Shown here in pieces: positions 7,260 through 22,482 of a stretch of DNA of 27,548 nt. The notes under the pieces were generated by a model that saw only the letters and a list, made by a program, of their open reading frames with translations, had not been told where the DNA came from and ran no database searches. Each line of letters begins with the position of its first letter. The stretch's first letter is position 1. The DNA comes from a bacterium (lineage in GTDB: Bacteria; Patescibacteriota; Microgenomatia; Daviesbacterales; UBA10151). The stretch covers positions 1 to 27,548 of the forward strand of contig JAJYNW010000019.1 in the NCBI GenBank assembly GCA_021786105.1, written 5' to 3'. Made by a program: the position numbers and the translations under genes.

Positions 7260-7545
7260 GCCTAGGAAGAAGGATAATCGGGTCGAATTTCGATCAGGAA
7301 AGTCCAGACAGCATAAAGCAGGGTGGGGTCGAGTAATCGATCCACGGGTAACCGCTAGTTAGAGCAACAGTGACGAACCGAGGTAAGGCTCGGGTGAAAC
7401 GAGGCAATCCTCCCCGCTGCAATCCTAGAACCAACAGAGCTGCTTGCTCGTTTGTTGAAATAAGGAGCATCAGATAAATGATTATCAAGTGGATAGATTC
7501 AGATAAAATCCACTGAACAGAATCTGGCTTATTCTTTTCCTAGGC
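7260..7545 (+). ncRNA. rnpB: RNase P RNA, compact form
   Basis: P1 GCCTAGGAAGAA/TTCTTTTCCTAGGC, P2 GATAATC/GATTATC, AGGAAAGTCC, GCAACAG, GGGTGAAACG and AACAGAATCTGGCTTA conserved regions; P4 is co-varied (CCAGA/TCTGG). Confidence 0.95.
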
Positions 7546-7546
7546 A

Positions 7547-7600
7547 AATCTGGCTTTAGAGCGATTAGCTCGCAAGCTTCGCTTACTAGCTTCCTAGGCA
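7547..7600 (+). repeat. Interrupted direct duplication of the rnpB 3' end with a hairpin in the middle
   Basis: AATCTGGCTT at 7521-7530 and 7547-7556; TTCCTAGGCA at 7537-7546 and 7591-7600; 34 nt containing AGCGA...TCGCT between the second pair. Confidence 0.75.
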
Positions 7601-19426: not shown

Positions 19427-19789
19427 TTATCTCCCCTTATATCTTTCAATCACTATATTTGCAGCGCGTTGATCAATTTGAAGTGTTTTGAGTTGATGTG
19501 TAATTTCTTTACATTGGGTATCTGAAGCGCCTCTTATTTCTTCGTTTAATCTCCGAATGTCCTTAGTTCTTCTTCTTCGTTCTGCTAGGATTCCTTGAAG
19601 TTCTCTATAACCTAAACGGCAGACATCTGGAAATTTTCGGACTACAAGTTCTTGCGCCAAATGTTCGATTGTTTTTGGTCTACGTGGAACAGAAAAATAT
19701 TCTGTTTGAGTTGACGATCCATTTCCGTATATAGCTTGTTCGGCTGTAGGGTCAAACCAATAGACTCTTTCTCTGTAATTTCTGCTCAT
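19427..19789 (-). CDS. Hypothetical protein (120 aa) with basic coiled-coil C-terminus, island left arm gene 1
   Basis: ATG follows GGGAGG-T7, so its SD is the right arm of the attenuator terminator. Confidence 0.75.
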   Translation of the reverse strand: MSRNYRERVYWFDPTAEQAIYGNGSSTQTEYFSVPRRPKTIEHLAQELVVRKFPDVCRLGYRELQGILAERRRRTKDIRRLNEEIRGASDTQCKEITHQLKTLQIDQRAANIVIERYKGR

Positions 19790-19815
19790 AAAAAAACCTC
19801 CCGTTTTGGGAGGCT
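19790..19815 (-). terminator. Intrinsic terminator of the branched-chain attenuator
   Basis: AGCCTCCC-AAAAC-GGGAGG followed by T7, immediately before ATG 19789. Confidence 0.85.
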
Positions 19816-19842
19816 GAAATTCCTTTCTTTTTTAGATAAAAT

Positions 19843-19935
19843 TTATCTAAAAAGACCTCCCAGGCAAGCTCCTCTTAGGAGCACGGTAAGGAGGGTAACT
19901 AAAACTAATAAACTTTCAATCAAAATTAAATTCAT
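19843..19935 (-). CDS. Putative Leu/Ile/Val-rich attenuator leader peptide (30 aa)
   Basis: MNLILIESLLVLVTLLTVLLRGACLGGLFR*; 14 of residues 3-20 are L/I/V and 2 are T; GGGAAAG upstream; lies between promoter and terminator. Confidence 0.78.
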   Translation of the reverse strand: MNLILIESLLVLVTLLTVLLRGACLGGLFR

Positions 19936-19952
19936 ATTTAACTTTCCCTAAT

Positions 19953-19998
19953 ATTTTAATTGGTTATTGACGTCCTTGTCAAGCTTTGATACTATAAT
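19953..19998. promoter_or_regulatory. Overlapping divergent sigma70 promoters
   Basis: Plus strand: TTGACG (19967-72), N17, TACTAT (19990-95), with overlapping TATAAT at 19993-98. Minus strand: TTGACA (19982-77), N18, TAAAAT (19958-53). Confidence 0.75.
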
Positions 19999-20004
19999 TT
20001 CTCA

Positions 20005-20088
20005 ATGAAAAGTCATCAACCAACTTTTTCTTTTTACTTTACATATTTTTGGTTTACTTCCCGAAAGGGGGGTTGGTTGATGTCTTAA
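20005..20088 (+). CDS. Putative Phe/Tyr/Trp-rich attenuator leader peptide (27 aa)
   Basis: MKSHQPTFSFYFTYFWFTSRKGGWLMS*; 8 of residues 8-17 are aromatic; ATG lies 6 nt after TATAAT, so it is probably leaderless. Confidence 0.8.
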   Translation: MKSHQPTFSFYFTYFWFTSRKGGWLMS

Positions 20089-20120
20089 AGACAAAAAAGT
20101 CTTGAAGATAGAAACTTTAA

Positions 20121-20146
20121 ACCTCCCGAAAGGGGGGTATTTTTTT
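20121..20146 (+). terminator. Intrinsic terminator of the aromatic attenuator
   Basis: ACCTCCC-GAAA-GGGGGGT then A and T7, 9 nt before ATG 20156. Confidence 0.85.
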
Positions 20147-20155
20147 GGAAAAATT

Positions 20156-20395
20156 ATGGCAGTAGAAACACTTGATAGACAGCAAGCGCAAATAGTTATA
20201 AAAGAACCAGTGAAGACTTTCGCTAAAGGCATGCAATATCTTGATGCAATTGCGGAATCGATTCGGCAAGGTAAAGAACCAGTAGTTATTGATGATACCC
20301 ATTATAGATCGGAGAATCCTTCTGCATCCCCACAAGTTATGACTAGAAGAGAACGAAGATTTTGGAGGAATTATTGCAAAGGGAGAATTCGATGA
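20156..20395 (+). CDS. Small hypothetical protein (79 aa) with Arg-rich C-terminus, island right arm gene 1
   Basis: MAVETLDRQQ...TRRERRFWRNYCKGRIR; ATG 20156 lies downstream of the terminator and is preferred to TTG 20102. Confidence 0.7.
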   Translation: MAVETLDRQQAQIVIKEPVKTFAKGMQYLDAIAESIRQGKEPVVIDDTHYRSENPSASPQVMTRRERRFWRNYCKGRIR

Positions 20396-20425: not shown

Positions 20426-20683
20426 ATGGTAGTAGAAGCAATCGATAGAGCTGGCGCGCTTGAGCAGCTATTAGGTAAAGGCGATCGTTGTGTTGACGTG
20501 TTGAAAAATGCTGATCAAAGATGTCAAGAAACATCAGTCGATCCCTGTGGAATTTGTAGAGTCCAGGATATGATTTCTCTTACACGGAATATAGAAACTG
20601 CTAAGAATATAGCAGAAATTTGTTGTCCAGCAGGGAAAATGGCTGCAAATTTAGAGCGTAAGTTAGCAGCAATGCCTAAGTAG
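20426..20683 (+). CDS. Small Cys-rich protein (85 aa), island right arm gene 2
   Basis: SD AAAGGAGGTG; RC-x7-CGIC...EICC. Confidence 0.82.
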   Translation: MVVEAIDRAGALEQLLGKGDRCVDVLKNADQRCQETSVDPCGICRVQDMISLTRNIETAKNIAEICCPAGKMAANLERKLAAMPK

Positions 20684-20734: not shown

Positions 20735-20968
20735 ATGGTAGAAAAAATCGATCCAAGCGATCCGGAGGCAAGGCGGATTAGCTGGCAAGATAGATTACCG
20801 GAGGAGGTAGTTGTTGAGCCGGAAATAGATCACTCATCAGTTAATGTTATTAATCAAAGAATAAAGAGCAGATGTTGGGAGGAGTTGACTGGTAGTTGTG
20901 GTTTATGTATAGATCCTAGTGCAGGAGAGGTTTCCCAGAAATTAGTCGAAGCTTGTCGGATCCTTTGA
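20735..20968 (+). CDS. Small Cys-rich protein (77 aa), island right arm gene 3; possibly frameshift-truncated
   Basis: SD AAGGAGGTG; RC-x7-CGLC...EAC. Confidence 0.78.
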   Translation: MVEKIDPSDPEARRISWQDRLPEEVVVEPEIDHSSVNVINQRIKSRCWEELTGSCGLCIDPSAGEVSQKLVEACRIL

Positions 20969-21041: not shown

Positions 21042-21070
21042 TTGCCAAGGGTAGGTTAAGCTGATATTAT
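21042..21070 (+). promoter_or_regulatory. Putative aspS promoter
   Basis: TTGCCA, N17, TATTAT with a TGn extension. Confidence 0.55.
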
Positions 21071-21165: not shown

Positions 21166-22482
21166 ATGAGGGTTCTTATTTTGGATTGTAACGAAAAAAT
21201 TGGTAAAGAAGTTAAAATTTGCGGATGGGTACATGTCCGTCGTGATCACGGAAAAATTATTTTTTTGGATATTACTGACAGGTCTGGCATTATTCAAGTA
21301 GTGGCAGAGGGTAGTAAAGTTCCTGATCTCCGTCCTCAAGATATGGTTTGTGTTACCGGTTCGGTAAAAAAAAGACCCGAGCATTTGTTTAATAAAAATA
21401 TCCCCACTGGTGAAATAGAAATCTCTGCGGAAAATATTGAAGTTTTATCAAAAGCCGCAGAGCTCCCTTTTGATATGGGCGGGAAAGAGTTGGATTTACA
21501 ACTTCCGACTTTACTGGACTATCGCTCGCTGACGTTGCGTCATCCCAAAGTCAAAGCTATTTTTAAAATTCAGGCCTGTTTGCTGGATGGGTTTCGGAAA
21601 GTAGCTAAAGATTTAGGGTGTACAGAGATTGTGGTGCCGACAATTGTGGCCGGGGCAACCGAAGGCGGAGCTGAGGTTTTTAAGGTAGATTATTTTGGCC
21701 ATAAAGCTTATATGTCCCAAAGTCCTCAACTTTATAAACAAATGCTGGTACCGGTTTTTGAAAGGGTGTTTACAGTGGCCAAAGCTTACCGGGCCGAGCC
21801 ATCGGTGACAACCAGGCATTTAACAGAAAGCACACAGATGGATATTGAGTTTGGTTTCATGGAATTTGAAGATTTATTGGATGTTTTGGAGGAGGTGGCG
21901 GTGAAAATGCTCAAAATTGCTGAGGAAGAATGTAAAGATGTGTTATCTGAATTTGGTATTGAAAAGGTAGCTTTCGGTAAAATTCCCCGCCTGACTTTAC
22001 GGGAATCTCAGGAAATAATTTTAAAAGAATTTGGTCGAGATAACAGAAAAGAAAAAGATTTAACTCCGCAGGATGAGGTGGATCTTTGTAAGTGGTCTAA
22101 AGAAAAATATGATAGTGATTTTGTTACGATTACTCATTTTCCTACTGTTGCTAAACCTTTTTATACTATGCCGGATCCGAAAAATCCGGAATATTCTTTA
22201 AGCTATGATTTGCTGTTTAGGGGGGTTGAGGTGATGAGCGGTTCGCAAAGAATTAATGATTATCAGCAGTTGATTGACAGTATTAAGAGCCGGGGGATGG
22301 ATCCTGATAATTTCCAGATGTATCTACAGGCTTTTAAATATGGTATGCCGCCGGAAGGAGGGTTTTCGTTTGGCTTGGAAAGAATCACTATGCATGTGTT
22401 AAACCTTGCCAATGTTAGGGAAGCGAGTTTGTTCCCAAGGGATATGGAGAGAGTGGATGTAAGATTAAGTAAATTGACCTAA
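21166..22482 (+). CDS. aspS: Archaeal-type (short, probably non-discriminating) aspartate--tRNA(Asp/Asn) ligase
   Basis: 438 aa, no GAD insert; OB-fold GWVHVRRDHG, TEGGAEVF, QSPQLYKQ, YRAE...RH and YGMPPEGGFSFGLER...LFPRD; SD AAGGAGG. Confidence 0.93.
   Translation: MRVLILDCNEKIGKEVKICGWVHVRRDHGKIIFLDITDRSGIIQVVAEGSKVPDLRPQDMVCVTGSVKKRPEHLFNKNIPTGEIEISAENIEVLSKAAELPFDMGGKELDLQLPTLLDYRSLTLRHPKVKAIFKIQACLLDGFRKVAKDLGCTEIVVPTIVAGATEGGAEVFKVDYFGHKAYMSQSPQLYKQMLVPVFERVFTVAKAYRAEPSVTTRHLTESTQMDIEFGFMEFEDLLDVLEEVAVKMLKIAEEECKDVLSEFGIEKVAFGKIPRLTLRESQEIILKEFGRDNRKEKDLTPQDEVDLCKWSKEKYDSDFVTITHFPTVAKPFYTMPDPKNPEYSLSYDLLFRGVEVMSGSQRINDYQQLIDSIKSRGMDPDNFQMYLQAFKYGMPPEGGFSFGLERITMHVLNLANVREASLFPRDMERVDVRLSKLT

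Follow-up and report, generated by a model that had tools for sequence, protein, structure and literature searches.

Leader-peptide attenuation is a textbook mechanism, described mostly in Proteobacteria, Actinobacteria, and some Firmicutes. T-box leaders, which have no open reading frame (ORF), sense tRNA charging by direct binding of the uncharged tRNA and operate a terminator/antiterminator switch before synthetase or amino acid genes. The accounts in two reports describe the aroR leader of Corynebacterium glutamicum, which carries Phe-Tyr-Phe and precedes aroF (DAHP synthase), as acting through ribosome stalling (PMC11802643, PMC4046766). To judge from a title cited in PMC4046766, the ilvBNC leader peptide of C. 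glutamicum is formed without a ribosome-binding site, and PMC11802643 mentions a leader-peptide attenuator in front of an aminoacyl-tRNA synthetase operon, pheST of Escherichia coli. Our literature search found no paper that joins Patescibacteria or the candidate phyla radiation (CPR) with leader-peptide attenuation; the two papers containing both terms use "leader peptide" in other senses. Here, we analyze a stretch of 27,548 nucleotides from a CPR genome (the window, at its full length), in which a small ORF rich in aromatic codons is followed by a set of alternative hairpins upstream of aspS. This element is very probably a ribosome-mediated transcription attenuator that reads charged aromatic tRNAs, that of Phe above all and probably also those of Tyr and Trp.

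Leader ORF and alternative RNA structures

The leader ORF (20005–20088, + strand) starts with ATG, comprises 27 codons and a TAA stop, and encodes MKSHQPTFSFYFTYFWFTSRKGGWLMS. Its regulatory codons 8–17 (20026–20055, +), F S F Y F T Y F W F, include five Phe, two Tyr, and one Trp (8/10 aromatic), exactly as an earlier note on this DNA had read them, and the last three (F W F) abut RNA segment 1. The ORF is unique among the 6034 ATG-to-stop ORFs of 14–45 amino acids in the six frames of the genome in having eight aromatics per 10-codon window; the runners-up in the same scan, four small ORFs, reach seven. The peptide has no Pfam family in the Pfam search.

Two hairpins, a terminator, and an upstream complementary segment lie within or behind this ORF. 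Segment 0, CATCAACCAAC (20014–20024, +), is the exact 11-nt complement of segment 2', GTTGGTTGATG (20072–20082, +), and their duplex has an energy of −22.4 kcal/mol (z = −5.0); in relatives, segment 2' is also the partner of an extension upstream of segment 3. Hairpin P1 (20056–20073, +; −9.6 kcal/mol) consists of segment 1, ACTTCCC (20056–62), a GAAA loop, and segment 2, GGGGGGT (20067–73), and overlaps leader codons 18–23. The middle hairpin (20081–20110, +; −9.9 kcal/mol) holds the leader stop codon (20086–88). The intrinsic terminator (20120–20146, +; −12.9 kcal/mol) is made up of segment 3, AACCTCCC (20120–27), GAAA, segment 4, GGGGGGT (20132–38), an A, and T7. Its hairpin (20121–38) has seven pairs, followed by the A and the T7 tract (20140–46), and it stands behind the leader ORF and 10 nt 5' of the ATG of the next gene at 20156, the place expected in leader-peptide attenuators. 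The antiterminator is formed by GGGGGGTT (20067–74) and AACCTCCC (20120–27); the latter is the left arm of the terminator, and the two structures are mutually exclusive. The three partners of segment 2 named in the earlier note (segment 0, segment 1, and the left terminator arm) were thus all located, and the near-duplication it had noticed is real, as the 17-nt units at 20056–72 and 20121–37 differ at a single position (16/17 identical). Folding of the stretch that runs from segment 2 through segment 3 gives −26.7 kcal/mol, and the fold of the whole leader beats 200/200 dinucleotide shuffles (z = −3.17). The aromatic leader ORF with its hairpins is more than chance.

Conservation of the leader among relatives

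The window is contig C7 of a 1.04-Mb genome in 26 contigs (G000, 92% complete), and the comparison set comprised 96 genomes of one Daviesbacteria-like (CPR) family. The nearest lineage-titled records to the aspartyl-tRNA synthetase (AspRS) of G000 are from metagenome-assembled genomes of Candidatus Daviesbacteria (76–81% identity), followed by Levybacteria. Many of the near AspRS records are titled "uncultured Gammaproteobacteria" amid Daviesbacteria and Levybacteria; these titles look like placeholders.

Downstream of recJ, which is syntenic in the relatives, lies the divergent intergenic region of 366 bp that contains the leader. Over its whole length, this region aligns with three congeneric species (68–77% identity), and part of it aligns with one species of another genus, while the flanking small genes show no DNA-level alignment with those relatives. 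Ten genomes carry the leader at the aspS locus, and each retains P1, the middle hairpin, and the terminator along with an ORF of 22–28 amino acids that has the core F(F)YF(W)FT. RNAalifold predicts the same three structures from the 10 sequences. The seven pairs of P1 are kept in all 10, and 7 of 23 pairs are changed on both sides; these double-sided changes fall in the middle hairpin, plus one terminator pair. Segment 0 is particular to this subfamily (z ≤ −2 in 7/10 aspS-locus leaders versus 0/19 others).

The peptide tail after P1 changes its frame between species, because the loop length differs by one base, and the nucleotides are conserved nevertheless. Constraint on the leader therefore acts on the RNA in its 3' part and on the codons in its 5' part. 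This pattern bears on a different explanation, in which the product is a functional aromatic peptide (membrane-active, a toxin, or ribosome-arresting) and the hairpins are merely its own terminator. Within the aspS-locus subfamily, the peptides do share a conserved core, F-(Y/F)-F-W-F-T-S, and trans-acting leader peptides are reported, as in the account of peTrpL. However, the tail is free to shift while the RNA is kept, the aromatic positions move and the length ranges from 14 to 33 amino acids, and the uncharged stretch is too short for a membrane span. In addition, the element always lies directly 5' of genes on the same strand, nearly always of a DAHP synthase gene where one is present. 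We consider a functional peptide highly improbable.

A covariance model (R1) was built from the 10 aspS-locus leaders. It matches 86/96 family genomes at E ≤ 0.01, although its E-values are rough, which tempers the support that it lends, and the 150 matches listed of 230 include non-aromatic element types. The window scores 131.6 bits, among the highest values, but this is circular, as it is one of the ten building sequences. The next tier (57–72 bits) lay outside model building: of 20 loci viewed, 19 hold aromatic small ORFs, e.g., MNLLKVWYFYFYFAFRKEGGLLE, and one is of a Leu/Val type. Three minus-strand matches of the Leu/Val type (L060:1286–1426, L044:848–992, and L042:5311–5467) were excluded before structures were counted, and L074, also minus-strand Leu/Val, was left out of the aromatic set. 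The resulting set of 29 leaders, used in the folding tests, consists of the 10 aspS-locus leaders and 19 others, with the ATG placed by hand in L042, L023, and L066.

In a wider collection of 47 related leaders, an ATG-started ORF of 14–33 amino acids is followed by a hairpin overlapping the ORF end, a covarying middle hairpin, and a terminator. Phe, Tyr, and Trp account for 317 of 1079 residues (29%), and all three are present in 38/47 leaders. This composition is consistent with one leader answering to Phe, Tyr, and Trp together. The ATG-to-stop aromatic frame, with its clustered sensor codons in a short 5' ORF as expected of a leader-peptide attenuator, is kept in 47/47. It is the frame richest in aromatic residues in 44/47, and the other two frames contain stops in 43/47 and 35/47. 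Both synonymous codons are used (TTT 163 versus TTC 36; TAT 52 versus TAC 26). The objection anticipated in the earlier note, that the aromatic bias is a by-product of a U-rich tract, is not borne out by these figures, since the frame is conserved in homologs. The same figures speak against an RNA-only switch, operated by protein, tRNA, or ligand binding in the manner of a riboswitch, T-box, or TRAP system, with an ORF incidental to the U-rich tract. The RNA structures are strongly conserved, as such a switch would have it, and T-box leaders exceed the gathering cut-off in 6/96 family genomes. On the other hand, third codon positions vary within the aromatic frame, the sequence from the start codon to P1 is otherwise poorly conserved, no Rfam family reaches the gathering score in the leader region, and no T-box was found in G000. 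The chance that the ORF is incidental appears to us very small.

Gene context of the leader family

The best argument for aromatic amino acids as the signal read by the leader family comes from the genes that it heads. A search with PF00793 found 30 DAHP synthase (DAHPS) genes in 29 of the 96 genomes, and an aromatic small ORF with a terminator lies directly upstream of 28 of them, as seen in the R1 matches and in 19 fetched upstream regions. The remaining two are a locus with the order leader, pheA, DAHPS, and a DAHPS gene whose upstream sequence was viewed as far as a preceding pheA. The aromatic pathway of this CPR family, where present, is thus almost always leader-headed, and the family as a whole stands before genes for the sensed amino acids, DAHPS and pheA. 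These homologous leaders before DAHPS and prephenate dehydratase (PDT) genes, together with the Rfam comparison given below, uphold the core proposal of the earlier note, a leader-peptide attenuator keyed to aromatic codons.

The first downstream gene of the 29 top R1 matches is a DAHPS in 11, a PDT in two, a family-less 324-amino-acid protein in one, and a small unknown in 14, the last match running into a contig end. For the 19 aromatic leaders outside the model, it is a DAHPS (of three architectures) in nine, a PDT in two, and a small unknown in eight. The DAHPS genes of the nine loci are followed by DHQ synthase or prephenate dehydrogenase (PDH) where checked, and aspS or an AlaX-like gene follows the small unknown in five of the eight. 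The slot between leader and AlaX-like gene holds a DAHPS in one genome and ORFans in others.

At the aspS locus, the nine relatives with downstream sequence share an arrangement in which one to three variable genes separate the leader from aspS. These are a DAHPS in G015 and G030, the 324-amino-acid protein in G001, and unknown proteins elsewhere. In several relatives, aspS begins 32–58 nt after the leader-controlled small ORF; the corresponding distance in the window is 197 nt. Even within the genus, the genes that separate leader and aspS are wholly different; many encode small, Cys-rich proteins (CxxC-like and CC motifs), and many start with M-(A/V)-V-E. An all-against-all BLASTP of the small downstream proteins gave almost no families, the exceptions being L044–L071 and the pair formed by the 77-amino-acid ORF of the window and a 73-amino-acid ORF of G001. 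The 324-amino-acid protein of G001 (L041:2162–3133) occupies the DAHPS slot and adjoins tyrA-like and pheA genes. It looks DAHPS-like (TIM-barrel) by eye, but it belongs to no Pfam or NCBIfam family and was not counted as a DAHPS.

The same scaffold occurs with other sensor codons before matching genes. In G000 and G015, a leader rich in Ile codons stands before ileS, and in G012 one stands before citramalate synthase. The G000 copy (contig C5:176–304, L129) combines an Ile/Thr-rich leader, MNTQRLATITAIIITSPAGGS, with P1, a middle hairpin, and a terminator; behind these lie a 99-amino-acid Cys-containing ORF and then ileS. As the sensor codons match the downstream genes, these leaders support the attenuator mechanism apart from the aromatic case. 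R1 matches four places in G000 besides the aromatic leader, this C5 copy being one of them. Two weaker matches of 33 bits, L128 (C15:14470–14608) and L127 (C2:8749–8894), have small ORFs without clear codon bias; one of the two precedes a 460-amino-acid unknown protein, a 99-amino-acid ORF, and trpS, and the other precedes a HicA-like 78-amino-acid ORF.

Folding tests of the switch

The switch was examined by ribosome-constrained folding of the 29 leaders. In transcripts cut ahead of segment 4, ribosome stalling on the final aromatic codon leaves the 2:3 pairing formed in 27/29 leaders, including that of the window, whereas a ribosome at the stop codon leaves it in only 6/29, the window not among them. 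Of these six, five belong to the aspS locus and have a late stop codon. The stop codon lies 11–27 nt after the start of segment 2 in 29/29 leaders. The alternative pairing itself covaries: the duplex of segments 2 and 2' with the extended segment 3 averages −17.5 kcal/mol for cognate and −15.4 kcal/mol for non-cognate combinations, and 0/20,000 permutations reach the observed mean, a result inflated by the relatedness of the sequences, which the permutation ignores.

Several observations weigh against the attenuator reading or against parts of it, besides the rough E-values and the relatedness just mentioned. In full-length equilibrium folds with one ribosome stalled at the last aromatic codon, the terminator is still formed in 28/29 leaders. 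For the window, this equilibrium state is the 0:2 pairing plus the terminator (−37 to −39.6 kcal/mol), and 2:3 wins (−28 to −34.5 kcal/mol) only if segment 0 is also masked, for example, by a queued second ribosome. The antiterminator of the window is short (8 bp), ranking 24th of 29 among the partners for its segment 2. The untranslated RNA cut before segment 4 prefers 2:3 in 25/29 leaders; termination without translation must therefore be kinetic, presumably with P1 forming first. Concerning Tyr and Trp, the run in the window has a single Trp and two Tyr codons, and the C. glutamicum aroR leader, according to the account in PMC11802643, responds to Phe and not to Tyr. Finally, no aromatic gene lies downstream in the window, and the aromatic pathway was not found in G000; genes for the sensed amino acids are thus missing from this particular locus. 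The earlier note's account of stalling stands in part. The readthrough-type 2:3 state does appear in the cut-transcript folds, and the constrained folding that it had suggested gives the expected switch there, while the full-length equilibrium keeps the terminator; moreover, one ribosome cannot mask both upstream partners, which span 49 nt.

Proposed mechanism

A promoter-like site (19967–19998, +) precedes the leader and consists of TTGACG, a 17-nt spacer, and TACTAT (19967–19995), with an overlapping TATAAT at 19993–98 that ends 6 nt 5' of the leader ATG. The alignment with relatives shows conservation around the −35 box. No Shine–Dalgarno-like 4-mer occurs in the 20 nt upstream of the leader ORF in 47/47 leaders, and a −10-like hexamer ends 6–13 nt 5' of the ATG in 32 of the 46 leaders where one was found. 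Because the Shine–Dalgarno sequence is absent and the −10-like box is close to the ATG, the leader mRNA would be leaderless or nearly so, and translation of the ORF from such an mRNA is consistent with the upstream sequences. Between 18800 and 21300, promoter-like sites are not enriched (6 versus 6.5 ± 2.6 expected), whereas terminator-like sites are (10 versus 2.3 ± 1.6). Among sequencing runs recorded as RNA, none was shown to contain the window.

Here, we propose a mechanism for the window element based on these structures and folds. Transcription would start with the ATG at 20005 or a few nucleotides upstream, and the 27-codon ORF would be translated without a Shine–Dalgarno sequence. When aromatic aminoacyl-tRNA is plentiful, the ribosome would reach the stop codon at 20086–88 and cover segments 2 and 2' (20067–82). 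Segment 3 would then be free to pair with segment 4, and the hairpin with its U7 tract would end transcription at about 20146. When the ribosome stalls on codons 8–17, especially on F15-W16-F17 beside segment 1, segment 2 would be free as segment 3 emerges. The 2:3 antiterminator, enclosing the middle hairpin, would form first, and the polymerase would continue into the ORFs of 79, 85, and 77 amino acids, and possibly into aspS. Segment 0, as a subfamily-specific extra partner of segment 2', may act as an additional off-lock that holds the switch off when the leader is without ribosomes.

The 3' arm of the terminator may also serve as a Shine–Dalgarno sequence, one that becomes accessible only once the antiterminator has formed. 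A candidate mini-ORF, TTG...TAG (MEKLWQ; 20145–20165, +), starts 7 nt after the G-run of segment 4 and overlaps the ATG at 20156; its status is speculative. Similar mini-ORFs start after the terminator U-tract in many loci, 7–8 nt from the GGGAGG of segment 4. Their versions include the TTG-started MEKLWQ* of the window, the ATG-started MEKIWQ* of L062, and MEK* of G000 contig C5, and they overlap or run into the main start.

A broader proposal is offered tentatively, and we would not press it. The scaffold (a small ORF without a Shine–Dalgarno sequence, P1, the middle hairpin, and a terminator with a Shine–Dalgarno-like 3' arm) could be a modular attenuator that serves as a general sensor of amino acid supply in Daviesbacteria-like CPR, with exchangeable codons (F/Y/W, Ile, perhaps Leu/Val). 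The aspS-locus switch would then have outlived the aromatic pathway and would couple aromatic tRNA charging to the production of hypervariable Cys-rich ORFans and of the non-discriminating AspRS. If this is true, aromatic charging in an auxotroph would reflect uptake from the surroundings or a host, and the switch would be a starvation sensor rather than a biosynthetic feedback loop.

Downstream genes and loss of the aromatic pathway

The first ORF after the terminator (20156–20395, +) encodes 79 amino acids, and the second (20426–20683, +) encodes a Cys-rich protein of 85 amino acids with a strong Shine–Dalgarno sequence; both are ORFans, each matching only itself among 5.8 billion proteins. 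Their protein-atlas models have low confidence (predicted local distance difference test, pLDDT, 0.49–0.52) and no usable relatives. The third ORF (20735–20968, +), of 77 amino acids and Cys-containing, shows weak similarity over 30 residues (E = 2.5e-4) to the 73-amino-acid ORF that G001 has in this place. The Pfam search gave no family for six small flanking ORFs, and the idea that the small ORFs of the window are DAHPS remnants was dropped, as tblastn found nothing. The aspS gene (21166–22482, +) encodes a non-discriminating aspartate–tRNA(Asn) ligase (NF003483, 483 bits versus a cut-off of 353). It may have its own promoter because a promoter-like site lies at 21042–21070.

Searches of G000, at its 92% completeness, found no DAHPS, PDT, PDH, DHQ synthase, AlaX, or chorismate synthase. 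As the aromatic pathway is gone from this genome, the switch in the window is either orphaned or reused. Alternatively, it would be a vestigial attenuator inherited from a DAHPS leader, structurally intact, without adaptive sensing, and reduced to a leaky terminator ahead of fast-turnover ORFs. Such an origin would agree with the missing pathway, with the ORFan nature of the downstream ORFs, and with the weak antiterminator extension of the window. It also fits a stepwise loss, in that the closest aspS-locus relatives, G015 and G030, keep a lone DAHPS with neither chorismate synthase nor PDT found in their genomes. In both (L040 and L042, respectively), the best NCBIfam model of this DAHPS is the Bacillus type, but below its cut-off. 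By comparison, G071 is fuller, having chorismate synthase and PDT on the same contig as its leader-headed DAHPS, and the series suggests that the pathway was lost step by step and the leader left behind.

Loss of function does not necessarily follow. Intact leaders (ORF, P1, and terminator) persist in at least 10 genomes of seven genera without a PF00793 gene (G000, G001, G004, G110, G117, G115, G089, G109, G022, and G108), which argues for continued use of the leader. The window copy has one of the top R1 scores, although it was used in building R1, and its intergenic region is better conserved than the flanking genes. A vestigial switch is therefore unlikely in our view, and we favor an attenuator that reads aromatic tRNA charging and may now control the downstream ORFs.

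A second element of the same layout lies on the minus strand of the window (19788–19947), divergent from the leader and with an overlapping promoter. It comprises a Leu/Val-rich small ORF of 30 amino acids (19935..19843), MNLILIESLLVLVTLLTVLLRGACLGGLFR, a perfect 26-nt AT palindrome (19826–19851) holding the stop codon, and a hairpin with U7 (19815–19795), whose GGGAGG stands 7 nt before an ATG at 19789. The 3' 72–115 nt are conserved in 66/96 genomes, the R1 score is 39 bits, and variable ORFans follow downstream. A genuine small membrane protein would fit the peptide consensus, MSKxIxxDLKRVEIxxSLLxVLLxGAxLGGLFR, equally well.

Comparison with known systems

At the gathering level, the sole Rfam match in the window is bacterial RNase P RNA class A (7262–7547, +; 108.5 bits), and the leader element belongs to no curated family. 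Below that level, Phe_leader (RF01859) matches the element best, scoring 29.7 bits where the gathering threshold is 55 (E = 0.0018–0.0063). This match spans the full model and aligns the U-rich codons, P1, and the terminator. A covariance search for the T-box (RF00230) gave no match in the window and none in G000. T-boxes are present in some genomes of the family, whereas the window element is of the leader-peptide type with an ORF. The idea that leader peptides have replaced T-boxes in this family was rejected, as T-boxes do occur in it, above the cut-off in the six genomes noted above and at E ≤ 0.001 in 64/96.

The closest described counterpart in architecture is the pheL–pheA attenuator of Gammaproteobacteria (RF01859), which has the same short ORF with Phe codons, a hairpin at its end, 2:3 and 3:4 alternatives, and a GC-rich terminator with a U-tract. 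The window element differs in its mixed F/Y/W sensor, the absence of a Shine–Dalgarno sequence, the extra 5' segment 0, the CPR lineage, and the absence of a phe gene downstream. In function, the nearest precedent is aroR–aroF of C. glutamicum, which likewise has a mixed aromatic leader peptide, and the pairing with DAHPS is seen in relatives of the window element. Unlike aroR, it has a longer aromatic run (8/10 codons), which includes Trp, and no DAHPS in the window. The E. coli pheST attenuator is paralleled by the Ile-rich leader of the same scaffold before ileS in G000, whereas the synthetase of the window, aspS, is mismatched to the aromatic sensor codons. Compared with these systems, the window thus presents a known type of mechanism in an unexpected lineage and, in G000, without its pathway: an intact sensor that heads ORFans and offers a natural test case for the survival and reuse of regulatory RNA during genome reduction. 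R1 provides a searchable model for dozens of unannotated small ORFs with terminators in these genomes, which can be placed beside the pheL, aroR, and pheST leaders.

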